The position numbers were made by a program, and so were the translations under genes. A stretch of DNA of 64,000 nucleotides from Tubiluchus corallicola (Eukaryota > Animalia > Priapulida), in NCBI GenBank assembly GCA_030141605.1, contig JAQGDQ010000016.1, positions 1,332,388 to 1,396,387 on the forward strand. The letters run 5' to 3'. How positions within the stretch are numbered: position 1 is the first letter of the stretch; every line of letters begins with the position of its first letter. A model generated the notes under the pieces. The model searched no databases. It saw nothing but the letters and a program-made list of their open reading frames with translations, and was not told the DNA's origin. This document shows, in pieces, positions 5,744 to 63,519 of this stretch.

Positions 5744-19569
<13,826 letters not shown>

Positions 19570-19724
19570 TATCAGGTACATTGTTTTTTGTTTTGTTTTT
19601 GTCGTAATTTTTTTCTCCAGGGTGGCAAAGAAGTTACTTAAGTTGAATTGAGTTCTTTGAATTTAAGAAATGAGTGTTTAGTCCAATACGTACAATGACA
19701 CATAAATCTTATAAAGTACTATAC

Positions 19725-38400: not shown

Positions 38401-39391
38401 TGTGTAAACTGAGTTTGACCTTATTTCCTTGGCTACATAGCACATCTGCTACGTACATATATGTCTTCGACTGTGAATTCTGCATCATTTGAAATTTGCT
38501 GTTTTTGCACATTTTTATTATTATTAATAATAATCTTTTGTTCGTATAAAATTTTTTATACAGCAATGTAGTTTTAGTATAAATAATTAATACAATGAAA
38601 AATAATTTTTGTTAGTAATTAAAAAACAAGAGATTTAGAGATTTTAAGACAATTTTCAGCAAAAAGCTTAAAGATTTGATAGTTTTGGAGGTTTTAATGC
38701 ATATGCACACTCTCCCACTTATTTTAGAGATGATGGACCTATATATATATATATATATATATATATGTTCTAAACATTCTTGATAGATATATAAAAATGA
38801 TCTGTAAAGGGATTATTATTCTTGTACACAATTCTACGTGATTTTAAGGCTTTTGGTTTTTGCATGTATTTTACTTTTGATAAATGTATACCAAAACAAA
38901 TATATTTTTAATTGTGACTTGCACAAGTTGATTTTCGGGCTGAATTTAGGGGCTGAAGCTGTTTTACTTGCATGACACTATAATTTTGCTTTGGAGGTTC
39001 ATTTATTGATCTAAATTCAGTTTCATGTGCAGTTTCATATCACCATATTGCCTCATTTGCAAATAAATATAAAACTTAAACAAGTAAGTAAATATATAGG
39101 CCTAACAAATTTTCGTGAATGAATGTAATGATTGATTGATTGAATGAATGAATGAATAGGTGGGTGCATGATTGATTTTTATTTGGCTTGTTGAAATCAT
39201 ATCTTTTTTTCTTATGAACAATATCAAAATAAAGTTGCAAAGTTGTTATTTTGTCATGTGCTTTGTGCGTTTTTGTAGCTCGTCAGTGCTCAAAAAGAGG
39301 AGGAGATGTCTACGTGAATGTACGAGAAGACAAGAGAGTCGAGATTGGAGGCAAGTCTGTAGTCGTTATAGAAGGAAAGATCTATTTATAG
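29422..39391 (+). CDS. PBLD: PhzF/PBLD-family isomerase-like protein, copy 1 (296 aa). Exons: 29422-29532, 30328-30526, 32435-32577, 34071-34159, 36142-36314, 37737-37799, 39279-39391
   Basis: Seven AG/GT-bounded exons total 891 nt in open frame; motifs VVDAFT..AF.GN, LRWFTP..E..LCGH.TLA, FDTLSG.L, LDFP, DFYSR.F.PW.G..EDPVCGSAH, QCS.RGG. NLSET is changed to NLPIT. Confidence 0.93.
30565..30752. repeat. ~60-bp tandem repeat x3 in PBLD copy 1 intron 2
   Basis: GCTGAA.CTGAGTCAGTTGCTACTAAATCAGCTGA... repeated three times; single unit in copies 2 and 3. Confidence 0.9.
31474..31930. repeat. Interspersed ~450-bp repeat present twice per PBLD unit (introns 2 and 5)
   Basis: CAATAC.AAA.AC.AAAATGATCC...CGACTAAAGCTGGGTTTCTTATCGGCTAGGTCGACTGTAGAA...GGCTCTGGC.TCTA recurs at ~36888-37363, 46695-47155, 51842-52318 and 61082-61540; probably a transposon end. 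Confidence 0.75.
32880..33220. repeat. 66-bp minisatellite x5 in PBLD copy 1 intron 3
   Basis: GCTTTCTTGCCTGCAATACTCATGTAAATAG...GTAAGTAAAGG repeated nearly perfectly; one unit only at ~48106 and ~62493. Confidence 0.97.
33639..33933. mobile_element. PIF/Harbinger-like MITE (also at 48610-48904 and 62999-63293)
   Basis: TAA|GGGTGCATTCAGACTAGCGAGTTTTCT ... AGAAAATTTGCTAGTATGAATGCTTCA|TTA imperfect TIRs with TWA flanks and internal GT.TGAAC...GCGAGTTA subrepeats. Confidence 0.75.
34638..36045 (+). mobile_element. P-element/THAP9-family DNA transposon, 5' half, frameshifted and truncated
   Basis: Begins CAAGGACTACTATAC exactly where homology to copy 2 stops. THAP remnant (GNYD...VFRLP...W...ICEKHW...PPSIF) is followed, after a frameshift, by YEQLRDFLVLPSKRKLQ and LLVDEVKI (first catalytic Asp region). 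Confidence 0.85.
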
Positions 39392-40250: not shown

Positions 40251-42595
40251 CAAGTGTAAAATTAAGTTTATCAAAACACAGTAGAATGTCGCTACCAGTC
40301 TCTTTTGAAATTACTGCTTTTTTCTGAAAACTTTGACCACTAATTGCGACCAGCATGGTTTGGATTACAACGAAGTCAAAATTTGTTTACTTTCCCCTGG
40401 TAAGCAGTAATGTTTTTTGTCTAAATTATCGTATAATTATCTGTTATCGTACAGTCTGTTTTTTTTGTATGGTATGAAGCATCAAATTATCGTATATTCG
40501 AATAATTATCATATAAAAAGCAACCCTGTTTATCATTTTCATGTCAGGTAAGTGCTAGAAAATAGAACGAAGGTAGAACTGTAGCAGTGCGTAGTTAATA
40601 TAAAAAAGAGTTCCTTTAAGGGAAAATAGAATGGTGTATAATGTTCTCTTATGATCAGTGATTATTTTATCATTGTTGTGTTTTTAATTAGAAATGCTCC
40701 TTTTAAGGGAAAATTAAAATAAGCTTTTAGCATGTAGTGAACTGAGTGGAATTCTGAAATAGTGTTGTTCCCTATAATAATTTTACAATTTTAGTCAAAG
40801 GATTATGTGCAGTTTTAATAGAAATATTATTTTATGTTCTATGCACTAAGTGGGATGGACGTTTTTGTTGTTGTTGATGTATACTATCTTTTCTCTATAT
40901 ACCAGCTAGACTACACCACTATTGTTATGCATTTGGGAAGTTTTACTTATGGACCAAAGTTGACCTTACCTTTTTTGCCCATTTCTGAAGTTAATTATTG
41001 TAGGTTTTATATTTTAGAATTTAAATGTGCCACATTGTTGCTTTATTAGGGTAGAGGATTGAGTGATATTTTATCAATTGTGCCAAATAAATTAACTTGT
41101 TCTCGGTTAAAGCGGCTTAGGACTATAATAATGGCGGTTATATGCGCCATGCAATTTCTATATTTGAATGAAAATACAGCATTATTGTGTAAATTGTGCC
41201 AAATAAGTTAATATGTTTCTGCTTAAAGTGGATTATCAAGTTACTGCTGTGTTATTTGATTACAGTAATTTTTGTGGCTTTATAAATCGACCAAGTCCAC
41301 ATTAAGATGAAATTATATTTTTTGTAAACAGGATGAAACAGGATAGGAAATAAGTTAACAGGTTTCTGCTTAAAGCAGATTACGAAGTTACAGATGCGCT
41401 AAGCTATACTTTTTGATTACAGTTATATTTATAGCTGTATAAATCGTGGATTGAATAATTAAAATGAAATTATTTTTGTTTGTTTAATGAGATTATTCTT
41501 GTTTATTTAAACTTTAACTATGTTTCTGTGTTACAATAAATGAACTCAAAGCAGAAAATGCAGTTCCTTATATGTTTAAATTCCTGGCAAGAATAAGGGG
41601 GCATTTTATAGTACAATTCTAATGTTGTATATGTTAGATATCATGAAGCAATATAAATTTATCAGAATAGCTCATTGCCACACTTAAGATTTCTGGAAGT
41701 CAGTGATCAAAAGTTATATTACTGCATATTTTATTTAATAAAAACTTTAATTTGGAAACAATATGCAGCCAATAATATGTTAGAATCTTGCTTGTTTCTT
41801 TTGTCACATCAAACTCGCATGTACACAATCTCTAAGAACACTTAAATTGTTGCATGAGGTCTGTCTCAACAGTAAGAACAGCTACGTGTGAGAGTTTTCT
41901 ATACAATAGCTTACAATAACTGTACGATAAAATGATTTACTATTACCAGTTGACAGAGTACCAAAATGTGTAGAAATGAAGAAGTGAACTCATAAGATAT
42001 CATACTAAGTGCAGGTGATGCTACTCATTGTATAATAAATAAAAATTGGAAAAAGTCAAAAAGTTGATAAATCTTGTTGCTGTCTCAGTTGATGTGACTT
42101 ATCAAATGCACTTTCACTGTTTCCTTCATGCACTTTACTTAATCACAGCCTCTTTTTGTTGTTAGCTGATGTTATTTTGCGTAATTTGTTGTGATTTTTG
42201 TTATAAAGTTATGCAATTTGTTTTGTTTTTTTACAGAAGAAGTGGTAGTTTGTTAACATTCTACTTTATTTAATCTCATTTTAGGTGTCAGTTTATGTGC
42301 GTAATACATATTTATGGTAAAGTTTTTTCGTGTTAGGCTGCTTTAAAAAAATTTCTTATTGACAAATAAGAGAAATGCTCACCTACTATGCAAGCAATTA
42401 TTTAAGTCTTGCTAAAATTAATAAATGATCATGGCAGCAATTTATCGTTAAAAAAATTAACATTGTTAATACTAAATTACTAGCAAAATGAGCTTAACCA
42501 AGCCTAGCCCTAGGTGTCTGATATGAGAGTCGTCGTAAATACGCTGTCAACGCGTTGCCAAACGATCGGTTTTCCTGTTGAAGATATCCCGTTGT

Positions 42596-43350
42596 GGGAT
42601 GTGTGAAAAAGTGGGATGCATCGTGAGGGATATTTTAAATTTGAGTGATATAAACAAAATTGGTAGGTTTGCAATACAGATAAGGCTGAACCTCTTACAG
42701 TCAGTTATGATACTAGTGATTTATAATACAGAAACATGGAGTGAAGTAACAAAAGTAGAAATGGGTAGGATGGAAGAAATTCAGAAGGATATGTTACAAA
42801 AACTAGTAATTTATCACAGAAGGTGTCAACTAGTTATAGGGGTATGCTAATAGAACAGTGTACATAAGTATATACTGTAGGTATACACTTTGGGCATATT
42901 AAGACTCTTAAAAAGTTAACCTGGAAGAAACATGTAAAAGAAAACGTAAAAAAATTATTAAAATTACTGCACATCACCAGATATACTCAAGAACTAAGTT
43001 AAGGTTTTTATCTTATGAGCTGAGCACGATAAACCCAAGCAGTATATAACTGAGTTAACACTAGAACAGACAAAAAGGGTTTTAGAGATAAAGCTTAATA
43101 TGCTACCACTAAAATGTAATTATAGAAGTAAGTTTAAAGGAGATATATGGTGTCCGCTATATGGTAAAGACAGGATCTATTTAGATTGTTATAAGAAATG
43201 TGCTACCAACTACAGAAGTAAATTTCCAAAGTCTGATTGAGTCAGAAGATGCACAAATAGCAAAGCAGTAGGTGGAATTTGTTCAAATAGCAATGGAAAC
43301 AAGAAAAAGAAGAGGTGTCGTGCTGGAAATTTAGCTACAATAATAATAGT
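42596..43350 (+). mobile_element. Degraded LINE 3' fragment (copy at ~56983-57735)
   Basis: IRLNLLQSVMI.VIYNTETWSEVTKVEMGRMEEIQKDML and KLNMLPLKCNYRSKFKGDIWCPLCGK; (TAA)-like tail; absent from unit 1. Confidence 0.7.
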
Positions 43351-43619
43351 CATAAATGGTTGATTAGCATCAATGCTGATTACGTTACTTGTGTCTTGCG
43401 CGGTAACATTCCTTTGTGCCTATCTAACCAGATAGAGTTAACACCGAGGAAACAACGAAACAACATGTGCTTACTGGAGAACCGCAACTGCCGCGACATG
43501 ACATAGAGGAAGTTGAGGAACTGCAAGATGTAAAATGTACAACAGTCGTCGTATAGAAAAATATAATCTTAAAGTGAACAATACAAAGACCAAAGAATAC
43601 GTTATACCCACTGCTAATT

Positions 43620-44420
43620 TAAACATCAACAATTCTTCCTAAATATCTTTTAATGACACAGATAAAGTCAAGGAATACATTATTTAAAAATGTGTATAGT
43701 TACCAGTCTCATGAAGAAGTGAAACAGCTTTGTACAAAAATGGGCAAATTTTCCAGGATTTCAAACATGTGGTGTAGATGAAATTGATAAAATGCATCTG
43801 AATTGCATATTAAAAGAATTTTGTAATAAACTTAAATCAATGTACAGAAAACTATTTTTTACAAAGCTACATAATGATCCTAGACACAGTGATGGCAAAA
43901 ACAAACTAAGATTTTATAGATATGTAAAAATCAATAATGAATTAGAAGATTATTTCAAAATTATTTCTAATGAGAAACAGCGACAAATGATTACGAAATT
44001 ACATAACAGCGAATATGACCTGGAAATAGAACGATTTAGATATCAAAATAAAAAAGGGCATGAAAGGCTTTGTCAATACTGTCACAACAATAGCTCAAAA
44101 TTAGTAGAAAACAAATTATATTACCTTTTTACTTGTCTTTTGTATAAAGATATTAGACAAAAATATGAGCATAAATATATCTTTGCAAAAAGGTAACATA
44201 TACTCAGTAATGTGGTTTTTTTCTAATTGCAAACCCAGAAGACCTTATTCACTTTGGAAACTGCTTAAATGAATGTGATAAAAAAGGCAGTTATATCTTG
44301 GTGGTAATCTGTGAGTGCTGGATAAACCTTGTGCTGTGATTGTGTAATTTAATCTCGTTTGTGATTATATTAATTATTTAGGTTTTGTGTTTTTACTACT
44401 ACTTTGTAGTTGTAGCATAA
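43620..44420 (+). mobile_element. LINE 3' fragment with C-terminal zinc knuckle (copy at ~58010-58810)
   Basis: KLRFYRYVK...ELEDYF...ITKL.NSEYDLEIE..RY...ERLCQYC...LFTCLLYKDIR matches the pattern of non-LTR ORF2 C-termini; it splits the old RTE remnant. Confidence 0.75.
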
Positions 44421-45214
44421 AGTTTTATTTCGTAAGAGCACATAATTTCTTATTAGATTTAAGTAAGTTGTACAAACTCGTGGTTTTGCAATGTTGCATA
44501 ATTGCATCTGTATTTGTTGTTTTTCGTGTTTCTTGTACTTTGACTTTTTTGCAATTGTAATTTTTTGCCATGATACGCTATTGTATTTGTGCAATAGAAC
44601 AAAATTGAAATTGAAGATGCGGTAATGATTCGTGGAAAAGATGTAAATAACTTGGTAACTTGTAAGACACCGATGCCCACATACAAAGAAGGAAAATTCT
44701 TAAATTGTCTGCTTATTCACATATCTCAATGATTTTTGATAACAATAGACTTTCTCTTGAAACCAGAGTCCGGATTCTTTCAACTTTAGTTGAATCTGTG
44801 TTTTTGTACACTGCTGAGCTATGGACAATAAAAGTTAAGCAACAGAAGGACAGTTGATGCTTTTCGAAGACGTCTCTATAGGAAATTACTCGCAATTAAA
44901 TCGCCTGATAGAATATCCAATGATGATCTGTATAATGCAGTCAAGAAGATTCCTGGTAGTAGACAAATACAAGTAAGAAAATTGCTTTGGATTGGGCACA
45001 CACTAACAGTAAGATTACCTCCTCTTCCTATGGTATTGCATAAAGCTCTTGAAACGACAAAAAACCAAGAGGCTGTCAACTAGGCTGACGTATTTAGGTT
45101 TTTGGTACAGATTTATGATCTAACATGTACATTAGGCAATTTGATACAGACATCATACTATATTCAAAATTTGTAGCTGCATATTTGCCATTAGTTTCTA
45201 CTCAACAGACCAAG

Positions 45215-48200
45215 ATGACAAGTTTAAATAAGGGATGCACTTTGCCTTTATATGTGGTGGATGCTTTCACAAGCCAGGCATTTGCTGGAAATGCTGCTGC
45301 TGTATGTCTAGTGTCACACAATCAGGTAAATTAATGATGATCTGTCATTAACAAACTTTTCGTCTTAATTTGTTTTCAGCTATTTTTATTGCACTGTTCT
45401 TCACTGCAAATAACTTGTGGTCCTGTAGCACAAACTCAGTCAATGTATGTGTCTTAATCGCACTCTTATTTATGTAAAGATATGAGTTTTTAACTACTAA
45501 CTGATAATGTTTTTGTTATTTATTTATGTGATTAACTCAATGAATTAACTGTGTTACAATAAATAAATCATTATATTATAATATTTAAATCGCAGGCTTG
45601 CATAATAAAAATCACTGGTTTATTTTTAGAAATATTGAAACAAATTTAACAAGTTAGTTGAAAACAAAAGTGTCCATTTAGTCACAGCTGAAATCAATTT
45701 GTAATCAATTAAACTTATAACATCAGTCATAATAATGTCAGGATAATGGTGACTGTGCCTTTAAGTTATGTTTGTATTTGGATCTATTATAATAGTAGGT
45801 GTTTTTCATGAAGATTTAGTATAATTTTAAGTGACAATTACAATGAGTATCAATGCAGAAAATGCATTTTGTTGTTGTTGTTGTTGTTGTTTCCGTTTCT
45901 ACGGAGGCTTTGTAGTTTCTTTCTGCAATTCGAATAGATATTCTGAGTATTATTTGAACTGTACAAAACAGGAGATATGTTATATGTTCAAAATCTATTC
46001 CAAACAGTCCGAAGGCTGTGTTGTTTTTATTAGTTGAATTGTGGTGTAATCTGCATTTCTTGGGTTATATTATTAAATGGCTGTAGACATTGTGATGTAT
46101 ATAGTCATTCGGTTATTCTATTTTAGGTAATCGACGATGCAAAAATGCAAAAAATTGCTTTCGAAATGAACTTGTCGGAAACCTGTTTCATTGCACTGCC
46201 AACAGAAAACGATTCGTTCAAGAATTCTTCCCGGTTTGGCCTGCGATGGTTTACCCCTGCCTGTGAAATCCAACTGTGTGGTCATGCCACTCTTGCTGCT
46301 GCCACGGTGCTTTTCTCTTGTGTTGGTAAGTTTGCTAAGCAGGACAGAAATGTAAATCTAGAAGCTGAACCTGAGTCAGTGCTACTACATCAGCTGACAC
46401 TCACAGTAAATCAGCCAGCTGGAGTTCACCATTAAGAATGACAGATTTTGATTCTTATGTCCTGCAGCAACAATTTAGCGTTAGTTTGAATAGTTTTATT
46501 TGTGAACTGGCTTAAGTGATTCGACAGCACACCCCTTTATATGCCATATATCTCTCTATATCTCTCATATTTTATGTACTCACAATGTTAAAAAAAATCT
46601 CCTGGCTTATAATCTGGCAACTCTAGCAATGGATTTATTGCAAATATAATTTAAATCCAACCCTTGGCAAGGCTTATCTGGATTACCAACAAATCAATAC
46701 TAAAATACCAAAATGATCCAATACGTGTGGCTAATGTTGCCTATTTGTGCATTTTATTTAATTTTGAATTGACTGCTTTCTCATTCAAATATTTCTGAAG
46801 TTTAGTATCTCTGCCAGCACACGTACAATATGACCGCATTGCGACCAGTGATTTCATCATCATCATAAGCCCGTTATGTCAATTGTAGACATTGGGCAGG
46901 CAGAACTCTAAAATAAAAGAAATCTGCCCTCAAAACAGGTAAACACAGCAGTAATCTAGCAAAAAAACTGGACACTGCTATGCCAGTGACTTGTTCGCAA
47001 GAGCAAAAATCTTCACAGCTGGCAAAAATGTCAGCTACCTCGACTTCCGTCACCGAGCGGCTGGCACGACTAAAGCTGGGTTTCTTATCTGCTAGGTCGC
47101 CTGTAGAAATAAACCGACTGGAGCTGAGCTGAAGCGGTATGGCTCTGGCTTCTATGTCGATCCCTTAAGTATTTTTCACGTTGTCTTGAAAATCAGGGAG
47201 TTTTTATTTGCCAACCTAATACCAAACGAATTCACTGTGAATTTATTTGTGTGCTAATGCGTTTACTTCAAATAAGCTTCCATGCAGTTTTGCTTTTTTT
47301 CTTCTATTGTTTTTTTAGATTGTGTGCCTTTTTTGCATTTTAGGACTTAAAGCATTCCGCTGTTTTCAGTTCTCATCATATTTGGCATTTTCTTAGGAGA
47401 CTGTCAGCTTTCCCTTCTTTTCATCTGCACTTTAAAAAATTGGAAAAGGAAAATAGTGCCTGTTAACCATATTCTAAACCATATTCTATTCCAATAATGA
47501 AATTACAATTAGGCATTGCAATATTTGATTGTATTGCTAATCCACTAATGCTACGATTAGGCTCTAAATATTTGTGAAATTGATAATCATTATGATAGGG
47601 GGGTCTGAAATTAAAAGGCAGCTAGTGAATATATCTACAGCTATGTAAATTATTACAGGTAACGAATTTACAGAGATTACATTTGATACGCTAAGTGGAC
47701 CACTTGTTGCCAGAAAAAAAGAGGACAATTTTATTCTGCTAGATTTTCCTGCTAATCCAACTATTAGTGTTAACAAGGAAAATGTTAAAGATCTTTTAAA
47801 GGTACCTACTGTTTTGAATGACCTGTAAAACAAGTTTGCCTGGGTTTTTGTTGTAAGTAATTTTATCATTGAAGCTTTTAGCAGGTAGGTGGTTGACAGT
47901 TTGGAAGACATTCTGACGCCTTGGTATATTTATGTATTTTAGGAAATTTCCGGCGTTACTTGTTTTAACTGTGTGTGCTGGCCATGTTTTTCAAATGTAT
48001 CATATGGGCTGTTTTTTTTTGGCCAATAGCTAAATTGCATCTTTGCACAGACTTTTTTGAAGGCATATTACTTAGTATTATCTTACTTGTATTACTTAGT
48101 ATTACGCTTTCTTGCCTGCAATACTCATGTAAATAGAAAAGACACATTTTCTAGCTTTATGTAAGTAAAGGGCTTTCTTGCCTTTTATGACAATTTTTTG

Positions 48201-51200
48201 GTGTTTTAATTAATCCTATTCAGTTTTCGAATTTGCCTGAAGAGGGGAGACAGCATGAGAGGAACATGGAAACTATTCAAAGGTGGGATGGGGGTGGGGG
48301 GGTGGGGGGTTACAGTAATGGTGGCAGTGAAGCACTTGCTGTTACTTTAATGTTTCTTTTTACTGGCTGTTACACACACGTGCATGCACGCACGCGCACA
48401 CACACACCCACACACACGCACTGTTACATAATATAGTAAAATATATCATATCACTCTTTTCGGTGATTCTAGATTGCATAGCACTCCTACAATAGGACTA
48501 GTTGAAGTTTAGCAAACAACTATCACAATTACTAACCTGACATTCTGTGCATTAAATTTAGAAATCCACAGATTAAAGATACGAGACAATGCCGCTATGA
48601 TAAAACTAAGGGTGCATTCAGACTAGCGAGTTTTCTGTTGGGAGTTTTTCTCTAACACCAAACTTGCAAGTGTGAACTGCTTTGCGAGTTACTATCGACA
48701 AGTCATTGCACACTTTCAGACAGTTGCTACGAAATGATTTCCTGTTTAGTGTGAACAGTCTCAGCGAGTTACTCTTGACACGGCTCCCAGTGAATAGAGG
48801 AGGAGTATCAGCTGGTGCTTACTTCATGTTGGAGAATTTTGTTCTTTAGTCTGAACGTGCTTGCGAGTTACTTGGCGAGAAAATTTGTTAGTATGAATGC
48901 TTCATTACTCTCAAAAGCAGTGCGACAAAATATCAACATTCTTGCAACAGTCAAGTCATCTAAATTCTTCTTTGTAAAAAGTATTTTGGTCCGAACTTTA
49001 ATACACTGTAGAATCTTATGTGAATGTTTTTTATAATACAGGTACTTGTTGGAGATTTACCTATTGTTGATGTGGAGTATGCTCCTGTTATACAACAAAT
49101 GATTGTGTGTCTTCAAGATTCTGTGTCCAGGTGTGCATGTTGATAATTTTTTATTTGGTTTGTCGTGTGTCATTCGTTTTGCACTTTTCATTAGCTTTCA
49201 TGTTATTATACATACTATAAAATTGCTGCAAATTGTACAAATCTGCAATTAATCTCTATTTCTATGAAGTGTGTTTGTGTATGTTTGTTTATTTGTTTGC
49301 TATAAAGTCCTGTTTTACTTATTTAACTTCAAATTTGGTCTATTAAGTTGCTAATACATCACACTCCCCATTGAATTATGGGATATGTACAGTTATGTGT
49401 AGAAATCAATTAACAAAAGCTGAAGACAGTCTACTTTTTAACTTTTGGCAGGAGCTCTACTTACATGAAAAAGAATTTAAAATACACTATGTTTCAGTCC
49501 ATTGTTGGGTTCAAATTCTGATTGGATGAAAATTTTTCATTGTCTCATTCTTCATTCATTAGTCATTGATGTTATTATTGTTGTAAGTATAAGGCTTCAT
49601 GTGTGTGTGTGTTTTACCTTCAGGTAAAAGGAAAAAGTTATGTGAGTAGCAAGTACATGTTTGCTGCATGTCTGGTGCTCTTAGCATTGTGCTAAAATGT
49701 GTTATTTTTAGTCTACTTCTTTTGTAATCTTTGCTGTGCTGCTTGTGGTTGTATTGTACAGTGTCCAGAAAGGTAATCCCCCACTTTGCCAGTTATCTTT
49801 TTGCCAGTCTACTTTTTCACCAGTCTACTTTTTTGCTAGTCTACTTTTTTGCCAGTCTACTTTTTCGCTAGTCTATTTTTTGCCAGTTTTCTTTTTCGCC
49901 ATTCCACTTTTTCACCTCTCCACTTTTTCGCCAGTCTTCTTTTTTGCTAGTCTATTTTTTGCCAGTTTTATTTTTCGCCATTCCACTTTTTCGCCAGTCT
50001 TCTTTTTTGCCAGTTTTCTTTTTCGCCAGTCTTCTTTTTCGCCAGTCTTCTTTTTCGCCAGTCTATTTTTTGCCAGTCTACTTTTTCGCCAGTCTACTTT
50101 TTCGCCAGTTTTCTTTTTCGCCGGTCCACTTTTTTGCCAGTCTTCTTTTTTGCCAGTTTTCTTTTTCGCCAGTCTTCTTTTTCGCCAGTCTTCTTTTTCG
50201 CCAGTCTATTTTTTGCCAGTCTACTTTTTCGCCAGTCTACTTTTTCGCCAGTTTTCTTTTTCGCCGGTCCACTTTTTTGCCGGTCCACTTTTTCCCCGGT
50301 CCACTTTTTCCCCGGTCCACTTTTTCGCCAGTCTTCTTTTTGCCGGTTTTCTTTTTCGCCGATTTTCTTTTTCGCCAGTCTTCTTTTTCGCCAGTCTACT
50401 TTTTCGCCATTCTACTTTTTTGCCAGTTTTCTTTTTTGCCAGTCTTCTTTTTTGCCGGTCCACTTTTTTGCCAGTCCACTTCGTTAGGTTAATAATGATT
50501 AACAATGAAGACTTGACGCTTTAAATGCTTTGTGAACGGAAGATATAAATCCTACAGAGCGTGCCATATATCACTGGATTTGCACTGAAATGATGAATCT
50601 GATGCACTGTGCCAAAATCGCGAGTCCAATCGAAAATTTAACATTCAGAATCTGCTGTTATTTTCATTCTGAGATGTTTAGTTTCCGAGATATGCACCTT
50701 TTTGGAATAACTTAAAAATATACATAGCTAGTCCACCAAATTTAGTATGCTTGTAGTTAGGGTAGAGGGCCACCTCAGGTTGTGACCCTGTGACCCTCCT
50801 GAGTTATAACCCAAAAATCATCAAAAGAGGTCTATTTTTGAGAAATAGTTACTCCTGCAGGAAGCGCCATCTATTCAAACGAAAAAAAACATGAAAGTAC
50901 TATGCCTTGGCTATCAGTAACTTGCTTAGCTTTGTCGAACACTGAACCATTGCCCTTTTACAATGCCACAAACATGCCATTGTCTGTATAATGCTTAATA
51001 TACTTAACATATACGACAGTTGCAAAGATTAGTATCTTCAATACTAATGAATAAAAGTATCATCACCATGTTCGAATGCATATACATTGTACGTTCTTTG
51101 TCACTCAGGTTAATAGTGAGTGGGGGCAACCGGCAACCAGTTTTTTAAATGACTATCAATTCATTTAGTGAGCAGGTCCCATGTTGCTTAATTTTGCAGC

Positions 51201-54200
51201 TAATGACACACTGTGAGCAACAAGCTAATTCTGTCATTCATGATGAAGCAATAAAGATACATTTATTTTCAGGGAGATGTTGGAGGCAAGAGCACCGGAT
51301 AGTTTTGCTCTTCCTGCAGCTAACACGTCCCAGATGAAACTGCACGGTGTCCACTTGACGGTTAAAGCTCCGGCCGACTCCGGCTACGACTTTTATTCCC
51401 GCTGTTTTTTTCCCTGGGATGGACTGCTTGAAGATCCAGTTTGTGGTAAACAATGTGCATTGTTTATGTAAGAATGAATGGACATACTATTTAAATATAT
51501 GAATTAATTATAATTATCTTTGCTTTAAAGTAAAGCTAAACAAAAGAAATTATGTTTATTATTCAACCGTCAGTTGCTACCACACCAGCTGACTCACACA
51601 GTAAATTAGCTAGCTGAGTAAAAAGTTAAAAAGAGCTTCTGGGGAATGTTCTCGATGTGCTCCATTTTGCAGTGTCTATGTTTGCCAGTAAGTGGCGTAT
51701 CTACTGGTGTTCTTTTGTAACCGGGGCGAAAGACACAGGCAAGGTTTGGAGTGGAAAACAGATAGAGTATCGGCAGTGGGACTGATACAGGAAAGTTGTA
51801 GGGTGTGAAGAGAACCACCTAAACTGCAAGGGTGCCCAAATCAATACCAAAACACTAAAATGATCCCACACGTGTGTCTAACGTTGCATATTTGTGTGTT
51901 TAATTTTGAATTGACTGCTTTCTCATTAAAAAATTTTTCAAAGTTAGTATCTCTGCCAGCACACGCACACAGTATGACCACGAATCCATACTGCATTTGC
52001 CATATTTCACCCAGTGATTTCGTCATCATCACATGCCCGTTATGTCAGTTGTAGACATTGCGTAGGCAGAACTCTAAAATAAAAGAAATCTACCCTCAAG
52101 ACAGGTAAACACAGCAGTAATCCAGCAAAAACTAGACACTGCTATGGCAGTGGCTTGTTCGCAAGAGCTAAAATCTTCGCAGCTGGCAAAAATGTCGGCT
52201 GGCTCCACTTCCATCTCTGAGCAGCTGGCGCGACTAAAGCTGCGTTTCTTATCGGCTAGGTCGACTGTAGAAGTGAATTGCCTGGAGTTCAGCTGAAACG
52301 ACATGGCTCTGGCCTCTAGTTTTAAGATGAAGATTAGTTTTAGTTTTGTTCTGTTTTAGTCTTACATTTTCTGTCTTAAGTCTGACTGAAAATCACTATG
52401 TCACTGAAGGAGTTGCCAGTTTTATGGTTTTTCTGTTCTAGTGCAGAAGGACTAATGTGGTAATAGTTCCAGTGAATAAAGTATACATTGTAGGCCTGAT
52501 TTTCAAAAACATGAAATGTTTTTTTCAAAAACATGAAAAGCCTATCTTAATTCATTATGTTTGCATGTTTAAAGTTTGCAATGTTTGATGCCAGTAATCT
52601 TCAACTAATTTCTGACTATGTTAGGGTCGGCTCACACTGTATTTGGTTGTTACTGGCAAAAAGTGCTGGGAAAATCAACTTTTCAAGGTAGGATAATTTG
52701 GTGCTTTATGACGTTTATTGTAATTTAACTTATGATGCTTATTCGTTTATGATCTGATTTTGTGTGTTTTTCAGTATGTCAGTAGATCTCAATTTAAATT
52801 CTGTGCAAGATTATTACCATGCTGACAAAGAGCGATATAGGTTCGATTTACTTAATATTGTGCAGCACACTGTAATTCAATGTGTGTAAAGTCCTCGAAA
52901 GGTTAAAAAATGAAAATTTCCAGCCATTGTAAATAACTGTATCTTAATTGACACAATTTTTCACAAAAAATTACAGAATGCTAGAAAATATAATTGTTAT
53001 TTTGAACAATATATATTTTTAGTGGCCAGTCACAAAGTATAATTACTGCCCTGCAATACCATATCACATAGACTTGTGCAGCATATGTTACCGGAACAGT
53101 ATCTTGCTTAACCCTTTTACCGCCTCCATGATGTACTATTATGTCTATTTTTTGAACTGGCTTATGCCTATTTGACATACATATTTATCATTAATATCTA
53201 GCACTCCATTTAAACTCTGGCGAAGTGTATTATCGCTTAGTCTAGTACGTTTAGACAGCTAGCAGGGCCCAGCACAGCTCCAGGAATATGTGTGAACTGA
53301 GTTTGACCTTATTTCCTTGGCTACATAGCACATCTGCTATGTACATATATGTCTTCGACTGTGAGTTCTGCATCATTTGAAATTTGCTGTTTTTGCACAT
53401 TTGTATTATTATTAATAATAATCTTTTATTCGTATAAAAATTTTTATACAGCAATGTAGTTTTAGTATAAATAATTAATACAATGAAAAATAATTTTTGT
53501 TAGTAATTAAAAAACAAGAGATTTAGAGATTTTAAGACAATTTTCAGCAAAAAGTTTAAAGATTTGATAGTTTTGTAGGTTTTAATGCATATGCACACTC
53601 TCTTACTTATTTTCCAGACGATGGACCTATATATATATGTTCTAAACATTCTTGGTAGATATATAAAAATGATCTGTAAAGGGATTATTATTCTTGTACA
53701 CAATTCTACGTGATTTTAGGGCTTTTGGTTTTTGCATGTATTTTACTTTTGATAAATGTATACCAAAACAAATATGTTATTAATTGTGACTTGCACAAGT
53801 TGATTTTCGGGCTGAATTTAGGTGCTGAAGCTGTTTCACTTGCATGACATTATAATTTTGCTTTGGAGGTTCATTTATTGATCTAAATTCAGTTTCATGT
53901 GCAGTTTCATATCACCATATTGCCTCATTTGCAAATAAATATAAAACATAAACAAGTAAGTAAATATATAGGCCTAATAAATTTCCGTGAATGAATGTAA
54001 TGATTGATTGAATGAATGAATGAATGAATAGGTGGGTGCATCATTGATTTTTATTTCGCTTGTTGAAATCATCTCTTTGTTTCTTATGAACAATACCAAA
54101 GTAAAGTTGCAAAGTTGTTATTTTGTCATGTGCTTTGTGCGTTTTTGTAGCTCGTCAGTGCTCAAAAAGAGGAGGAGATGTCTACGTGAATGTACGAGAA

Positions 54201-54263
54201 GACAAAAGAGTCGAGATTGGAGGCAAGTCTGTAGTCATTATAGAAGGAAAGATCCATTTGTAG
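45215..54263 (+). CDS. PBLD: PhzF/PBLD-family isomerase-like protein, copy 2 (296 aa). Exons: 45215-45325, 46127-46325, 47659-47801, 49042-49130, 51273-51445, 52625-52687, 54151-54263
   Basis: Same exon lengths as copy 1, open frame, canonical motifs GNAAAVC, EMNLSETCF, LCGHATLA and EDPVCGSAH. Confidence 0.95.
49782..50482. repeat. ~16-17-bp minisatellite (TTTTTCGCCAGTCTAC / TTTTTCGCCAGTCTTC variants), ~700 bp
   Basis: Directly visible array; produces spurious F/S/P-rich ORFs on both strands; possibly the internal array of a non-autonomous element. Confidence 0.97.
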
Positions 54264-57200
54264 TCTAAATCATGGAATCGTACTTAATCTGATTGCTTTA
54301 TCACAGTGTTGCCATTCTGGTTGATAAAGATTATTGTTTTGGAGGCTAAAAATTATAGTATTTTCCACCATATTATCGCATTTTCATGCAAAATTCAAAA
54401 TTACTGTGTATTTGCAGCAAATTATTATTATCATTGTATAATTATGCATTTAATAAGTAACCATAACACCAAAAAGTACCATTAGCAAGTGTAAAATTAA
54501 GTTTATCAAAACACAATAGAATGTTGCTAATTCCTGCATGTGCAGAACGAAGCCTGATCGTTGTCATCATGGCCATTTGACAACTATGAATGGCCCCTTT
54601 AAACTGATTAACTGTAACTGCTTCCCTTTGAGGTAAACCATTCCACAGATCCTATGACTGATAAAAAATTTCGTAATATAAAATTTATTCTTTAATTTTT
54701 ACCGTTTGTTAAACTACTCTCTTTTGAAATTACTGCTGTTTTCTGAAAACTGTTACCACTAATTTGCAACCAGCATGGTTTGAACTACAACAAAATCAAA
54801 ATTTATTTACATTTCCACGGTAAGCAGTAATGTATTTTCATATCTAAATTATCCTGTAATTATCTGTTATCATACAGTCTGTTTTTTTGTATGGTATGAA
54901 GCATCAAATTATCGTATATTCGAATAAATTTCATATAAAAAGCAACCCTGTTTATCATTTTCATGTCAGGTAAGTGCTAGAAAATAGAACGAAGGTAGAC
55001 TGTAGCAGTGTGTAGTTAATATAAAAAAGAGTTCCTTTAAGGGAAAATAGAATGGTGTATAATGTTCTCTTATGATCAGTGATTATTTTATCATTTTTAT
55101 GTTTTTATTTAGAAATGCTCCTTTTAAGGGAAAATTAAAATAAGCTTTTAGCATGTAATGGACTGAGTGGAATTCTGAAATAGTGTTGTTCCCTATAATA
55201 ATTTTACAATTTTAGTCAAAGGATTATGTGCAGTTTTAATAGAAATATTATTTTATGTTCTATGCACTAAGTGGGATGGACGTTTTTGTTGTTGTTGATA
55301 TACACTATCTTTTCTCTATATACCAGCTAGAACTACACCACTATTGTTATGCATTTGGGAAGTTTTACTTATGGACCAAAGTTGACCTTGCCTTTTTTGC
55401 CCATTTCTGAAGTTAATTATTGTAGGTTTTATATTTTAGAATTTAAATGTGCCACATTGTTCCTTTATTAGGGTAGAGGATTGAGTAATATTTTATCAAT
55501 TGTGCCAAATAAATTATCTTGTTCTCGCTTAAAGCGGCTTAGGACTATAATAATGGTGGTTATATGCGCCATGCAGTTTCTATATTTGAATGAAAATACA
55601 GCATTATTTTGTTAATTGTGCCAAATGAGTTAATACGTTTCTGCTTAAAGTGGATTATCAAGTTACTGCTGTGTTATTTGATTACAGTAATTTTTGTGGC
55701 TTTATAAATCGTGGACCAAGTCCACATTAAGATGAAATTATATTTTTTGTAAACAGGATGAAACAGGATAGGAAATAAGTTAACAGGTTTCTGCTTAAAG
55801 CAGATTACCAAGTTACAGATGCACTAAGCTATACTTTTTGATTACAGTCATATTTATAGCTGTATAAATCGTGGATTGAATAATTAAAATGAAATTATTT
55901 TCGTTTCTTTAATGAGATTATTCTTGTTTATTTAAACTTTAACTATGTTTCTGTGTTACAATAAATGAACTCAAAGCAGAAAATGCAGTTCCTTATATGT
56001 TTAAATTCCTGGCAAGAATAAGGGGGCATTTTATAGTACAATTCTAATGTTGTATATGTTAGATATCATGAAGCAATATCAATTTATCAGAATAGCTCAT
56101 TGCCACACACTTAAGATTTCTGGAAGTCAGTGATCAAAAGTTATATTACTGCATATTTTATTTAATAAAAACTTTAATTTGCAAACAATATGCAGCCAGT
56201 AATATGCTAGAATCTTGCTTGTTTCTCTTGTCACATCAAACTCGCATGTACACAATCTCTAAGAACACTTAAATTGTTGCATGAGGTCTGTCTCAACAGT
56301 AAGAACAGCTACATGTGGGAGTTTTCTATATAATAGCTTACAATAACTGTACGATAAAATGATTTACTATTACCAGTTGACAGAGTACCACAATGTATAG
56401 AAATGAACAAGTGAACTCATAAGATATCATACTAAGTGCAGGTGATGCTACTCATTGTATAATAAATAAAAATTGGAAAAAGTCAAAAAGTTGATAAATC
56501 TTGTTGCTGTCTCATTTGATGTGACTTATCAAATGCACTTTCACTGTTTCCTTCATGCACTTTACTTAATCACAGCCTCTTTTTGTTGTTAGCTGATGTT
56601 ATTTTTCCGTAATTTGTTGTGATTTTTGTTATACAGTCATGCAATTTGTTTTGTTTTTTTACAGAAGAAGTGGTAGTTTGTTAACATTCTACTTTATTTA
56701 ATCTCATTTTAGGTGTCTGTTTATGTGCATAATACATATTTATGGTAAAGTTTTTTCGTATTAGGCTGCTTATTGACAAATAAGAGAAATGCTCACCTAC
56801 TATGCAAGCAATTATTTAAGTCTTGCTAAAATTAATAAATGAACAATCACAGCAATTTATCGTTAAAAAAATTAACATTGTTAATACTTTTGTGGTGTGT
56901 GGTGTCTGATATGAGAGTCGTCGTAAATACGCTGTCAACGCGTTGCCAAACGATCGGTTTTCCTGTTGAAGATATCCCGTTGTGGGATGTGTGAAAAAGT
57001 GGGATGCATCGTGAGGGATATTTTAAATTTGAGTGATATAAACAAAATTGGTAGGTTTGCAATACAGATAAGGCTGAACCTCTTACAGTCAGTTATGATA
57101 CCAGTGATTTATAATACAGAAACATGGAGTGAAGTAACAAAAGTAGAAATGGGTAGGATGGAAGAAATTCAGAAGGATATGTTACAAAAACTAGTATTAT

Positions 57201-59601
57201 CACAGAAGGTGTCAACTAGTTATAGGGGTATGCTAATAGAACATTGTACATAAGTATATGCTGTAGGTATACAGTTTGTACATATAAAGACTCTTAAAAA
57301 GTCAGCCTGGAAGAAACGTGTAAAAGAAAACGTAAAAAAATTATTAAAATTACTGCACATCACCAGATATACTCAAGAACTAAGTTAAGGTTCTTATCTT
57401 ATGAGCTGAGCATGATAAACCCAAGCAGTATATAACTGAGTTAACACTAGAACAGACAAAAAGGGTTTTAGAGATAAAGCTTAATATGCTACCACTAAAA
57501 TGTAATTATAGAAGTAAGTTTAAAGGAGATATATGGTGTCCGCTATGTGGTAAAGACAGAGGATCTATTCAGACGGTTATAAGAAATGTGCTACCAACTA
57601 CAGAAGTAAATTTCCAAAGTCTGATTGAGTCAGAAGATGCACAAATAGCAAAGCAGTAGGTGGAATTTGTTCAAATAGCAATGGAAACAAGAAAAAGAAG
57701 AGGTGTCGTGCTGGGAATTTAGCCAAAATAGTAACAGTCATAAATGGTTGATTAACATCAATGCTGATTACGTTACTTGTGTCTTGCGCGATAATATTCC
57801 TTTGTGCCTATCTAACCAGATAGAGTTAACACCGAGGAAACAACGAAACAACATGTGCTTACTGGAGAACCGCAACTGCAGCGACATGACATAGAGGAAG
57901 TTGAGGAACTGCAAGATGTAAAATGTACAACACTCATCGTATAGAAAAATATAATCTTAAAGTGAACAATACAAAGACCAAAGAATACGTTATACCCACT
58001 GCTAATTTAAACATCAACAATTCTTCCTAAATATCTTTTAATGACACAGATAAAGTCAAGGAATACATTATTTAAAAATGTGTATAGTTACCAGTCTCAT
58101 GAAGAAGTGAAACAGCTTTATACAAATTGGGCAAATTTTCCAGGATTTCAAACATGTGGTGTAGATGAAATTGATAAAATGCATCTGAATTGCATATTAA
58201 AAGAATTTTGTAATAAACTTAAATCAATGTACAGAAAACTATTTTTTACAAAGCTACATAATGATCCTAGACACAGTGATGGCAAAAACAAACTAAGATT
58301 TTATAGATATGTAAAAATCAGTAATGAATTAGAAGATTATTTCAAAATTATTTCTAATGAGAAACAGCGACAAATGATTACGAAATTACGTAACAGCGAA
58401 TATGACCTGGAAATAGAATGATTTAGATATCAAAATAAAAAAGGGCGTGAAAGGCTTTGTCAATACTGTCACAACAATAGCTCAAAATTAGTAGAAAACA
58501 AATTATATTACCTTTTTACTTGTCTTTTGTATAAAGATATTAGACAAAAATATGAGCATAAATATATCTTTGCAAAAAGGTAACATATACTCAGTAATGT
58601 GGTTTTTTTCTAATTGCAAACCCAGAAGACCTTATTCACTTTGGAAACTGCTTAAATGAATGTGATAAAAAAGGCAGTTATATCTTGGTGGTAATCTGTG
58701 AGTGCTGGATAAACCTTGTGCTGTGATTGTGTAATTTAATCTCGTTTGTGATTATATTAATTATTTAGGTTTTGTGTTTTTACTACTACTTTGTAGTTGT
58801 AGCATAAAGTTTTATTTCATAAGAGCACATAATTTCTTATTAGATTTAAGTAAGTTGTACAAACTCGTGGTTTTGCAATGTTGCATAATTGCATCTGTAT
58901 TTGTTGTTTTTCGTGTTTCTTGTACTTTGACTTTTTTGCAATTGTAATTTTTTGCCATGATACGCTATTGTATTTGTGCAATAGAACAAAATTGAAATTG
59001 AAGATGCGGTAATGATTCGTGGAAAAGATGTAAATAACTTGGTAACTTGTAAGACACCGATGCCCACATACAAAGAAGGAAAATTCTTAAATTGTCTGCT
59101 TATTCACATATCTCAATGATTTTTGATAACAATAGACTTTCTCTTGAAACCAGAGTCCGGATTCTTTCAACTTTAGTTGAATCTGTGTTTTTGTACACTG
59201 CTGAGCTATGGACAATAAAAGTTAAGCAACAGAAGGACAGTTGATGCTTTTCGAAGACGTCTCTATAGGAAATTACTCGCAATTAAATCGCCTGATAGAA
59301 TATCCAATGATGATCTGTATAATGCAGTCAAGAAGATTCCTGGTAGTAGACAAATACAAGTAAGAAAATTGCTTTGGATTGGGCACACACTAACAGTAAG
59401 ATTACCTCCTCTTCCTATGGTATTGCATAAAGCTCTTGAAACGACAAAAAACCAAGAGGCTGTCAACTAGGCTGACGTATTTAGGTTTTTGGTACAGATT
59501 TATGATCTAACATGTACATTAGGCAATTTGATACAGACATCATACTATATTCAAAATTTGTAGCTGCATATTTGCCATTAGTTTCTACTCAACAGACCAA
59601 G

Positions 59602-62600
59602 ATGACAAGTTTAAATAAGGGATGCACTTTGCCTTTATATGTGGTGGATGCTTTCACAAGCCAGGCATTTGCTGGAAATGCTGCTGCTGTATGTCTAGTG
59701 TCACACAATCAGGTAAATTAATGATGATCTGTCATTAACAAACTTTTCGTCTTAATTTGTTTTCAGCTATTTTTATTGCACTGTTCTTCACTGCAAATAA
59801 CTTGTGGTCCTGTAGCACAAACTCAGTCAATGTATGTGTCTTAATCGCACTCTTATTTATGTAAAGATATGAGTTTTTAACTACTAACTGATAATGTTTT
59901 TGTTATTTATTTATGTGATTAACTCAATGAATTAACTGTGTTACAATAAATAAATCATTATATTATAATATTTAAATCGCAGGCTTGCATAATAAAAATC
60001 ACTGGTTTATTTTTAGAAATATTGAAACAAATTTAACAAGTTAGTTGAAAACAAAAGTGTCCATTTAGTCACAGCTGAAATCAATTTGTAATCAATTAAA
60101 CTTATAACATCAGTCATAATAATGTCAGGATAATGGTGACTGTGCCTTTAAGTTATGTTTGTATTTGGATCTATTATAATAGTAGGTGTTTTTCATGAAG
60201 ATTTAGTATAATTTTAAGTGACAATTACAATGAGTATCAATGCAGAAAATGCATTTTGTTGTTGTTGTTGTTGTTGTTTCCGTTTCTACGGAGGCTTTGT
60301 AGTTTCTTTCTGCAATTCGAATAGATATTCTGAGTATTATTTGAACTGTACAAAACAGGAGATATGTTATATGTTCAAAATCTATTCCAAACAGTCCGAA
60401 GGCTGTGTTGTTTTTATTAGTTGAATTGTGGTGTAATCTGCATTTCTTGGGTTATATTATTAAATGGCTGTAGACATTGTGATGTATATAGTCATTCGGT
60501 TATTCTATTTTAGGTAATCGACGATGCAAAAATGCAAAAAATTGCTTTCGAAATGAACTTGTCGGAAACCTGTTTCATTGCACTGCCAACAGAAAACGAT
60601 TCGTTCAAGAATTCTTCCCGGTTTGGCCTGCGATGGTTTACCCCTGCCTGTGAAATCCAACTGTGTGGTCATGCCACTCTTGCTGCTGCCACGGTGCTTT
60701 TCTCTTGTGTTGGTAAGTTTGCTAAGCAGGACAGAAATGTAAATCTAGAAGCTGAACCTGAGTCAGTGCTACTACATCAGCTGACACTCACAGTAAATCA
60801 GCCAGCTGGAGTTCACCATTAAGAATGACAGATTTTGATTCTTATGTCCTGCAGCAACAATTTAGCGTTAGTTTGAATAGTTTTATTTGTGAACTGGCTT
60901 AAGTGATTCGACAGCACACCCCTTTATATGCCATATATCTCTCTATATCTCTCATATTTTATGTACTCACAATGTTAAAAAAAATCTCCTGGCTTATAAT
61001 CTGGCAACTCTAGCAATGGATTTATTGCAAATATAATTTAAATCCAACCCTTGGCAAGGCTTATCTGGATTACCAACAAATCAATACTAAAATACCAAAA
61101 TGATCCAATACGTGTGGCTAATGTTGCCTATTTGTGCATTTTATTTAATTTTGAATTGACTGCTTTCTCATTCAAATATTTCTGAAGTTTAGTATCTCTG
61201 CCAGCACACGTACAATATGACCGCATTGCGACCAGTGATTTCATCATCATCATAAGCCCGTTATGTCAATTGTAGACATTGGGCAGGCAGAACTCTAAAA
61301 TAAAAGAAATCTGCCCTCAAAACAGGTAAACACAGCAGTAATCTAGCAAAAAAACTGGACACTGCTATGCCAGTGACTTGTTCGCAAGAGCAAAAATCTT
61401 CACAGCTGGCAAAAATGTCAGCTACCTCGACTTCCGTCACCGAGCGGCTGGCACGACTAAAGCTGGGTTTCTTATCTGCTAGGTCGCCTGTAGAAATAAA
61501 CCGACTGGAGCTGAGCTGAAGCGGTATGGCTCTGGCTTCTATGTCGATCCCTTAAGTATTTTTCACGTTGTCTTGAAAATCAGGGAGTTTTTATTTGCCA
61601 ACCTAATACCAAACGAATTCACTGTGAATTTATTTGTGTGCTAATGCGTTTACTTCAAATAAGCTTCCATGCAGTTTTGCTTTTTTTCTTCTATTGTTTT
61701 TTTAGATTGTGTGCCTTTTTTGCATTTTAGGACTTAAAGCATTCCGCTGTTTTCAGTTCTCATCATATTTGGCATTTTCTTAGGAGACTGTCAGCTTTCC
61801 CTTCTTTTCATCTGCACTTTAAAAAATTGGAAAAGGAAAATAGTGCCTGTTAACCATATTCTAAACCATATTCTATTCCAATAATGAAATTACAATTAGG
61901 CATTGCAATATTTGATTGTATTGCTAATCCACTAATGCTACGATTAGGCTCTAAATATTTGTGAAATTGATAATCATTATGATAGGGGGGTCTGAAATTA
62001 AAAGGCAGCTAGTGAATATATCTACAGCTATGTAAATTATTACAGGTAACGAATTTACAGAGATTACATTTGATACGCTAAGTGGACCACTTGTTGCCAG
62101 AAAAAAAGAGGACAATTTTATTCTGCTAGATTTTCCTGCTAATCCAACTATTAGTGTTAACAAGGAAAATGTTAAAGATCTTTTAAAGGTACCTACTGTT
62201 TTGAATGACCTGTAAAACAAGTTTGCCTGGGTTTTTGTTGTAAGTAATTTTATCATTGAAGCTTTTAGCAGGTAGGTGGTTGACAGTTTGGAAGACATTC
62301 TGACGCCTTGGTATATTTATGTATTTTAGGAAATTTCCGGCGTTACTTGTTTTAACTGTGTGTGCTGGCCATGTTTTTCAAATGTATCATATGGGCTGTT
62401 TTTTTTTGGCCAATAGCTAAATTGCATCTTTGCACAGACTTTTTTGAAGGCATATTACTTAGTATTATCTTACTTGTATTACTTAGTATTACGCTTTCTT
62501 GCCTGCAATACTCATGTAAATAGAAAAGACACATTTTCTAGCTTTATGTAAGTAAAGGGCTTTCTTGCCTTTTATGACAATTTTTTGGTGTTTTAATTAA

Positions 62601-63519
62601 TCCTATTCAGTTTTCGAATTTGCCTGAAGAGGGGAGACAGCATGAGAGGAACATGGAAACTATTCAAAGGTGGGACGGGGGTGGGGGGGGGTGGGGGGTT
62701 ACAGTAATGGTGGCAGTGAAGCACTTGCTGTTACTTTAATGTTTCTTTTTACTGGCTGTTACACACACGTGCATGCACGCACGCGCACACACACACCCAC
62801 ACACACGCACTGTTACATAATATAGTAAAATATATCATATCACTCTTTTCGGTGATTCTAGATTGCATAGCACTCCTACAATAGGACTAGTTGAAGTTTA
62901 GCAAACAACTATCACAATTACTAACCTGACATTCTGTGCATTAAATTTAGAAATCCACAGATTAAAGATACGAGACAATGCCGCTATGATAAAACTAAGG
63001 GTGCATTCAGACTAGCGAGTTTTCTGTTGGGAGTTTTTCTCTAACACCAAACTTGCAAGTGTGAACTGCTTTGCGAGTTACTATCGACAAGTCATTGCAC
63101 ACTTTCAGACAGTTGCTACGAAATGATTTCCTGTTTAGTGTGAACAGTCTCAGCGAGTTACTCTTGACACGGCTCCCAGTGAATAGAGGAGGAGTATCAG
63201 CTGGTGCTTACTTCATGTTGGAGAATTTTGTTCTTTAGTCTGAACGTGCTTGCGAGTTACTTGGCGAGAAAATTTGTTAGTATGAATGCTTCATTACTCT
63301 CAAAAGCAGTGCGACAAAATATCAACATTCTTGCAACAGTCAAGTCATCTAAATTCTTCTTTGTAAAAAGTATTTTGGTCCGAACTTTAATACACTGTAG
63401 AATCTTATGTGAATGTTTTTTATAATACAGGTACTTGTTGGAGATTTACCTATTGTTGATGTGGAGTATGCTCCTGTTATACAACAAATGATTGTGTGTC
63501 TTCAAGATTCTGTGTCCAG
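59602..63519 (+). CDS. PBLD: PhzF/PBLD-family protein, copy 3, partial (exons 59602-59712, 60514-60712, 62046-62188, 63431-63519; continues beyond the window)
   Basis: Exons 1-4 appear identical to copy 2 at offset 14387-14389. Confidence 0.92.

Follow-up and report, generated by a model that had tools for sequence, protein, structure and literature searches.

Tandem PBLD genes of the priapulid Tubiluchus corallicola carry a paired-cysteine active site and are predicted to encode racemases or epimerases

Three PBLD-like genes in tandem

We analysed 64,000 nucleotides of Tubiluchus corallicola DNA (assembly GCA_030141605.1, contig JAQGDQ010000016.1, positions 1,332,388 to 1,396,387 of the forward strand), here called the window and numbered from its first letter. 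Self-BLAST of the window revealed three tandem PBLD/PhzF-like genes on the plus strand, of which copies A and B are complete and copy C is cut by the window end. This report concerns two active-site cysteines encoded by these genes, Cys88 (site 1, motif LCGH) and Cys238 (site 2, motif EDPVCGSAH). The features of the array are as follows.

29422-39391, plus strand: PBLD copy A (exons 29422-29532, 30328-30526, 32435-32577, 34071-34159, 36142-36314, 37737-37799 and 39279-39391), 296 amino acids, intact
30376-30387, plus strand: remodelled SET motif of copy A, PITG in place of SETC (Glu to Ile); compare PVTA in the Aplysia Cys/Cys protein
30478-30480, plus strand: Cys88 codon of copy A (LCGH, site 1), from the translated gene model
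34640-36045, plus strand: likely THAP-type transposon fragment in intron 4, copy A only (THAP 21.7 bits, under the 23.9 cut-off)
36311-36313, plus strand: Cys238 codon of copy A (EDPVC, site 2), from the translated gene model
45215-54263, plus strand: PBLD copy B (exons 45215-45325, 46127-46325, 47659-47801, 49042-49130, 51273-51445, 52625-52687 and 54151-54263, the last with the stop), 296 amino acids
46178-46180, plus strand: Glu55 of copy B (SET motif), equivalent of the PhzF catalytic residue E45 (PMC5524880)
46277-46279, plus strand: Cys88 codon of copy B (LCGH, site 1), aligning with the first catalytic Cys of diaminopimelate epimerase (DapF)
51442-51444, plus strand: Cys238 codon of copy B (EDPVC, site 2), aligning with the second catalytic Cys of DapF; most family members have Thr here
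59602-63519, plus strand: first four exons of PBLD copy C (59602-59712, 60514-60712, 62046-62188 and 63431-63519); the site-2 exon lies beyond the window end

All introns in the three models are GT-AG, and copies A and B each comprise seven exons with an open frame of 296 amino acids. The coding sequence of copy C (exons 1-4, with the LCGH Cys codon at 60664) is identical to that of copy B. The likeness takes in upstream DNA, 40299-49611 matching 54718-64000 at 98.2% identity over 9.3 kb, and the B/C pair can be read either as a very recent duplication or as merged haplotypes. The THAP-like fragment ends about 97 bp ahead of the exon-5 acceptor of copy A, which is intact. Intron 4 of copy B contains a degenerate tandem repeat with a unit of about 17 bp (49770-50480), which contig depth indicates to be high-copy in the genome.

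Both cysteine codons are present and the second lies at a splice junction

Translation of the gene models places the Cys codons of LCGH (30478 and 46277) and of EDPVCGSAH (36311 and 51442) exactly where a preliminary description of this DNA had put them. A phase-1 intron after TGT-G interrupts the second motif (51445/52625 in copy B, 36314/37737 in copy A) and leaves GSAH in the next exon, so the full motif exists only after splicing. None of the runs containing this stretch is recorded as RNA, which counts neither for nor against its expression. One contig from run X6, a run taken as RNA by guess, passes directly from exon 5 to exon 6 at the predicted junction, and further X6 contig pieces connect exons 4-5 and exons 6-7. 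With about 10-15% divergence from the window, the X6 exon pieces come from a divergent copy or population, and the splicing that they document is that of a relative of copy B rather than of copy B itself.

Codon 51442-51444 has no listed difference in three of three X1 contigs, two of two X4 contigs and one of three X6 contigs, the last being the sole X6 contig that covers it; in X5 the codon lies near a contig end. Run X1 contains three exon-5 variants at similar depth, namely the B form, an A-like form and a third reading approximately WNGVPED (read by hand from the difference table). The loop ahead of the cysteine varies among them, and the Cys codon is kept in all three. Run X4 contains the A-like and third variants. 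Overall, the B form of the loop was seen in one of four runs and the A form in two. Contigs at least 80% identical to the window have only Cys at this site, a threshold at which a distant Thr paralogue could still exist.

The proteins belong to the PBLD family and share the DapF fold

Exons 2 and 5 match PF02567 at 76.7 and 27.9 bits, respectively (cut-off 27), and the exon 2 score shows that the resemblance to PBLD is not due to chance. A homologue search with exon 5 alone gave no matches, and an ESM Atlas search returned the family name only. Vertebrate PBLDs are about 45-48% identical to the window proteins. In a quick tree, the window copies fall inside a 27-row animal PBLD clade that includes vertebrates, Idotea and Watersipora (SH-like approximate likelihood ratio test 98). 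In another tree, a wider clade also includes Capsaspora and a fungus, and the position of the window copies within it is unsettled. Plant homologues form a separate clade. The best explanation of these sequence relationships is that the window genes are vertically inherited animal PBLDs. Horizontal transfer from plants or bacteria is not favoured, as the window copies group among animal PBLDs.

The preliminary description had equated the two cysteines with the catalytic pair of DapF, and profile alignment bears this out. With hhalign, a profile of 110 homologues aligned to Escherichia coli DapF with a probability of 91% (E 1.1e-6), pairing LCGH with DapF QCGN and EDPVCGSAH with DapF ETQACGSGAC. 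The shared fold, with each cysteine at the N-terminus of a central helix, was likewise recovered in an AlphaFold2 model of P0164, a natural Cys/Cys homologue from Garra rufa used as a proxy for the window protein and modelled with the same homologue alignment. In this model (predicted local distance difference test score, pLDDT, 96) helices begin at residues 79 and 229, just past Cys78 and Cys228, which is the arrangement described for DapF (PMC13728532). The model superimposes on Enterococcus faecalis 1S7J with Z 36.5 and a root-mean-square deviation (rmsd) of 1.4 over 260 aligned residues, on PhzF with Z 31.6 and rmsd 2.5, and on DapF or hydroxyproline epimerases with Z 23-24 and rmsd 3.0-3.3. 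A single-sequence model of the amphioxus protein P0229 reached a pLDDT of 31 and was not used.

Threonine is the norm at site 2

To place the second cysteine in context, site 2 was read in 369 distinct proteins pooled from three homologue searches; these are top-scoring cluster representatives rather than a census, and the profile used in two of the searches held three Cys rows. Thr is present in 325 proteins (plus five two-domain Thr/Thr proteins), Asn in 7 and Ser in 1, and the residue is missing in 8. Cys occurs in 21, to which one Cys/Cys and one Cys/Thr two-domain protein are added, giving 23 that carry it. By search, Cys was found in 13 of 120, 5 of 120 (top animal-profile matches, 115 of which have Thr) and 6 of 150 (diverse representatives). 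Cys/Thr is the family norm, and Cys/Cys is sporadic and not widespread.

Cys/Cys proteins were found in birds (hoopoe, scimitarbill, waxwing, Phainopepla and Sapayoa), in fish (cyprinids, with 14 of the 15 listed members of one 48-member cluster, and Garra), in a Branchiostoma hybrid, in Aplysia californica and in both domains of a Hypsibius protein. Capsaspora, Elysia, ticks, a bryozoan, a sea cucumber and the retrieved mammals have Thr, which makes Thr the likely ancestral state. Plants hold both forms, several of their homologues reading EDPVCG and the Arabis protein P0038 having Thr. Among bacterial proteins, 1S7J has Cys at both sites, whereas 4DUN and YddE pair Cys with Thr. It had been expected that PhzF and human PBLD would have Thr at the second site. 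This holds for PhzF, YddE and the retrieved mammalian PBLDs, with the correction that site 1 of PhzF is Ala rather than Cys (FAGH), its site 2 being Thr (EDAATG). Human PBLD presumably has Thr as well. The cysteine pair, the subject of the preliminary description, is therefore real but not special to it, given its presence in birds, carps, amphioxus, Aplysia, Hypsibius and 1S7J. This sporadic occurrence lowers the uniqueness of the locus and widens the claim.

Cys and Thr paralogues occur together in Sapayoa, Cyprinus carpio, Sinocyclocheilus grahami, Branchiostoma hybrids and Malus; in Malus sylvestris the two have adjacent locus numbers. Among such pairs are P0374/P0392 in carp, P0196/P0213 in Sapayoa, P0229/P0197 in amphioxus and P0031/P0414 in apple. 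A third active-site type, with Asn at site 2 (EDPVNG type), is seen in P0294, P0297, P0319, P0333, P0340, P0346 and P0368. Tandem or fused PBLD pairs also recur, in P0436-P0440 (Coemansia), P0224 (Hypsibius) and P0380 (Sinocyclocheilus); one partner of the Coemansia pair lacks the SET Glu and keeps Cys/Thr.

The second cysteine arose repeatedly

The distribution of Cys was mapped on a 90-row tree in which 19 rows had Cys and the Thr rows were a selected subset. The 19 rows require 14 changes of state, compared to a mean of 17.4 (range 13-19) for shuffled labels. The Thr-to-Cys swap arose repeatedly in separate animal lineages, although the three bird Cys rows could represent one old paralogue. 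Descent of the animal Cys/Cys proteins from one ancient subfamily was rejected: a tree constrained to unite the 11 Cys rows from the window and named animals gave p 0.0007 in an approximately unbiased (AU) test, made on a quick LG+G4 tree with the trait column dropped and with the group named after the tree was seen.

Under the genetic code, Thr can become Cys only by two base changes, via Ser. Two-step Cys is found in 23 of the 369 proteins but one-step Ser in only one, which argues for repeated selection for a thiol and against drift.

Copy A has diverged around the active site

Copies A and B differ at 42 bases, which amount to 21 amino-acid changes and 16 synonymous codons (ratio of nonsynonymous to synonymous rates, dN/dS, 0.47-0.53). 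Both cysteines are retained in A and B despite changes in the motif segments. Glu55 of the SET motif, present in 355 of 366 homologues, is absent from copy A. The same site reads PVT in Aplysia and TTT in both Hypsibius domains, all of them Cys/Cys, and PMT in P0360 and Coemansia. Of the 75 conserved columns, copy A is off consensus in 10, compared to a median of 3 and a 90th percentile of 9 among homologues; two of these 10, Ala28 and Glu55, are near-invariant.

Such departures could mean that the array is a redundant duplication under relaxed constraint, with copy A decaying and B/C a very recent or assembly-level duplicate. The transposon fragment carried by copy A, the near identity of B and C with their identical coding exons, and the finding of the B form of the exon-5 loop in just one of the four runs would all fit. 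However, the frame, splice sites and both cysteines of copy A are intact, its dN/dS is about 0.5, the A form of exon 5 is found in two runs, and the PIT of copy A has counterparts in the PVT of Aplysia and the PMT of P0360 and Coemansia. Relaxed constraint would also leave the fixation of Cys before the duplications unexplained, and we regard it as the least probable of the alternatives considered here. The parallel loss of Glu in Aplysia and Hypsibius weakly suggests specialisation rather than decay.

Cys88 and Cys238 as a predicted two-base active site

In the proline-racemase superfamily, Cys-Cys enzymes are racemases or epimerases and Cys-Thr enzymes are dehydratases (PMC3958920, PMC8142540, PMC4113996), and changing the Thr of human C14orf149 to Cys confers epimerase activity (PMC3958920). 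Because Cys-Cys enzymes of this fold are racemases and epimerases, and a Thr-to-Cys change yields an epimerase, we consider racemase/epimerase the best reading of the window proteins. Also in its favour are a plant enzyme, presumably of the PhzF family, listed as an Ile racemase (PMC7432710, Table 1), the recurrence of Cys at site 2, its coexistence with Thr paralogues, and the concentration of A/B amino-acid changes in motif segments that leave both cysteines in place. With slightly better than even confidence, based on sequence, modelling and analogy, we predict that the Cys88/Cys238 PBLD is a cofactor-free two-base racemase or epimerase acting on an amino acid or a similar small carboxylate. 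This is the activity that the preliminary description had proposed; its structural premises, the DapF-matching cysteines and fold, are supported, and the activity itself stays predicted.

In the proposed mechanism, one thiolate would take the alpha proton and the facing thiol would give one back on the opposite face, as in DapF and proline racemase, while the carboxylate would be held by two helix N-termini. In closed two-cysteine enzymes the thiols face each other with a C-alpha distance of 7-8 Å (PMC4113996). The ancestral Cys/Thr PBLD would have been a one-base enzyme (dehydratase, lyase or isomerase), converted by a Thr-to-Cys change after duplication. Copy A, with its remodelled pocket and no Glu55, might act on a substrate other than that of copy B, perhaps a more hydrophobic one.

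Several points weigh against this reading. The fold evidence comes from a homologue model rather than the window protein, and that model gave no Cys-Cys distance; the trees are quick LG+G4 searches. Four motif segments (41 of 296 residues) hold 11 of the 21 amino-acid changes between A and B and 1 of the 16 synonymous ones (Fisher p 0.004), but these segments were defined after the A/B differences were seen; at the 75 conserved columns there is no enrichment (7 of 21 changes, p 0.27), and the dN/dS for the whole coding sequence is near 0.5. Loss of the SET acid in 3 of 23 Cys domains compared to 6 of 321 Thr domains (p 0.017 by domain) is a weak link that involves only two Cys lineages. No column clearly co-varies with Cys238 in a comparison of 24 Cys and 336 Thr domains, in which weaker signals are uncorrected for kinship.

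Other points suggest more specifically that Cys238 is tolerated or has a tuning role, the protein doing the same job as a Cys/Thr PBLD through Cys88 and/or Glu55 and residue 238 serving as helix cap and in substrate binding. PhzF isomerises with a single Glu, E45 (PMC5524880, PMC5958127), which equals Glu55 of copy B. Since copy B keeps this residue, as do 20 of 23 Cys domains, and PhzF needs the Glu alone, the second Cys may not be catalytic. The lack of partner changes accompanying Cys238 fits as well, as do near-identical plant paralogues with either residue: apple and pear proteins in one 90% cluster split 8 Cys to 7 Thr among the 15 listed. A tolerated swap does not readily account for the recurrence of two-step Cys beside a single one-step Ser. 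Furthermore, copy A, Aplysia and both Hypsibius domains lack the Glu yet keep both cysteines, and the Cys codon is constant in the three X1 exon-5 variants where the preceding loop is variable. We consider this explanation unlikely, while giving it appreciable weight.

The second thiol could instead serve other chemistry. It might act as a disulfide redox switch, or it might isomerise or detoxify electrophiles from the diet or environment by thiol chemistry, the fast-evolving pocket loops tracking varied substrates. The DapF cysteines can form an inactivating disulfide, and there has been speculation about redox control (PMC13728532). The array also recalls detoxification families in its tandem expansion and its hypervariable pocket loops. 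However, the characterised Cys/Cys enzymes of this fold in the portions of the literature available are all racemases or epimerases, and nothing in our analysis points to an electrophilic substrate. Therefore, we judge a role of this kind improbable.

Extending the racemase/epimerase reading beyond this array, animals may have repeatedly evolved amino-acid racemases or epimerases independent of pyridoxal phosphate (PLP) by one Thr-to-Cys switch in a duplicated PBLD, with the window genes and those of birds, carps, amphioxus, Aplysia and a tardigrade as instances; we offer this only tentatively. If true, animals, vertebrates included, would join the holders of PLP-independent racemases, an unrecognised source of animal D-amino acids would exist, and the ordinary Cys/Thr PBLD would by implication act on a related substrate as a one-base dehydratase or lyase. 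Should the switch turn out to be neutral, the locus would be a small tandem array of the usual kind. What makes it interesting is the recurrence of the Thr/Cys switch rather than this genome alone, and Cys/Thr and Cys/Cys paralogue pairs within one species are a ready experiment on PBLD function.

Neighbouring features

Outside the array, the window contains the following.

5743-19570, plus strand: 3' half of a calcineurin A (PPP3C) gene, upstream of the PBLD array
13714-13813, plus strand: second, divergent calmodulin-binding-like exon inside calcineurin A; the canonical one is at 16543-16631
14106-14200 and 14326-14336, plus strand: two more candidate calcineurin A exons, ending in a stop
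24532-25095, minus strand: second open reading frame fragment resembling a long interspersed nuclear element (LINE), no Pfam match, between calcineurin and the PBLD array
25181-26320, plus strand: LINE-like reverse transcriptase fragment (RVT_1), in the same interval

Neither of the short calcineurin A candidate exons has a Pfam match. Judged by sequence, the candidate exons could give an alternative C-terminus that lacks the autoinhibitory domain, reminiscent of vertebrate CnA-beta1.

Comparison with known systems

In the literature searched (titles and abstract openings, with most subscription papers outside it), we found no earlier report of a Cys/Cys PBLD in animals and no enzymatic activity for the ordinary, tumour-suppressor-linked Cys/Thr PBLD. 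The PBLD papers found there deal with cancer and innate immunity; no substrate is named in any of their titles or abstract openings. A 2024 review (PMC10851380) lists amino-acid racemases that need no PLP for prokaryotes, trypanosomes and, in the case of DapF, plants only.

Animal PBLD/MAWBP proteins (PF02567) have the same motifs and site-1 Cys as the window proteins. Unlike most of them, the window proteins have Cys rather than Thr at site 2 and are encoded in a tandem array, and copy A lacks the SET Glu. Arabidopsis DAAR1 and DAAR2 are presumably PhzF-family members (same Pfam family) that use two cysteines; plant homologues as a group stand apart from the animal clade holding the window proteins. 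DAAR1 and DAAR2 are listed as Ile racemases (PMC7432710, Table 1), with gene identifier At4g02850 (PMC4978887).

Pseudomonas PhzF, a dihydro-hydroxyanthranilate (DHHA) isomerase, has the same fold, and its E45 is present as Glu55 in copy B and absent from copy A. Its Ala and Thr at the two sites mean that cysteine chemistry has no part in PhzF. Isomerases of this type combine a catalytic Glu with the lack of an active-site Cys; both complete window copies have two cysteines, and copy A has no Glu, so the window proteins do not fit this type. The window residues mapped to the aligned DapF columns are Cys at both positions of the catalytic pair, as in DapF/ProR-type racemases and epimerases, and functional membership in that two-cysteine class is predicted.

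The Cys/Thr to Cys/Cys swap of the proline-racemase family, from dehydratase to epimerase, lies outside PF02567 and serves as an analogy only. DapF, proline racemase, hydroxyproline 2-epimerase and the histidine racemase CntK share the fold of the P0164 model (Z 20-24, rmsd 2.8-4.0). These enzymes have 10-19% identity in structural alignments and other pocket motifs, and activity has been measured for them where it is predicted here. The best match in both sequence and fold is E. faecalis 1S7J, a bacterial protein whose PDB title gives no activity and whose near relative 4DUN has Thr; 1S7J carries both LCGH and EDPVCGSAH.

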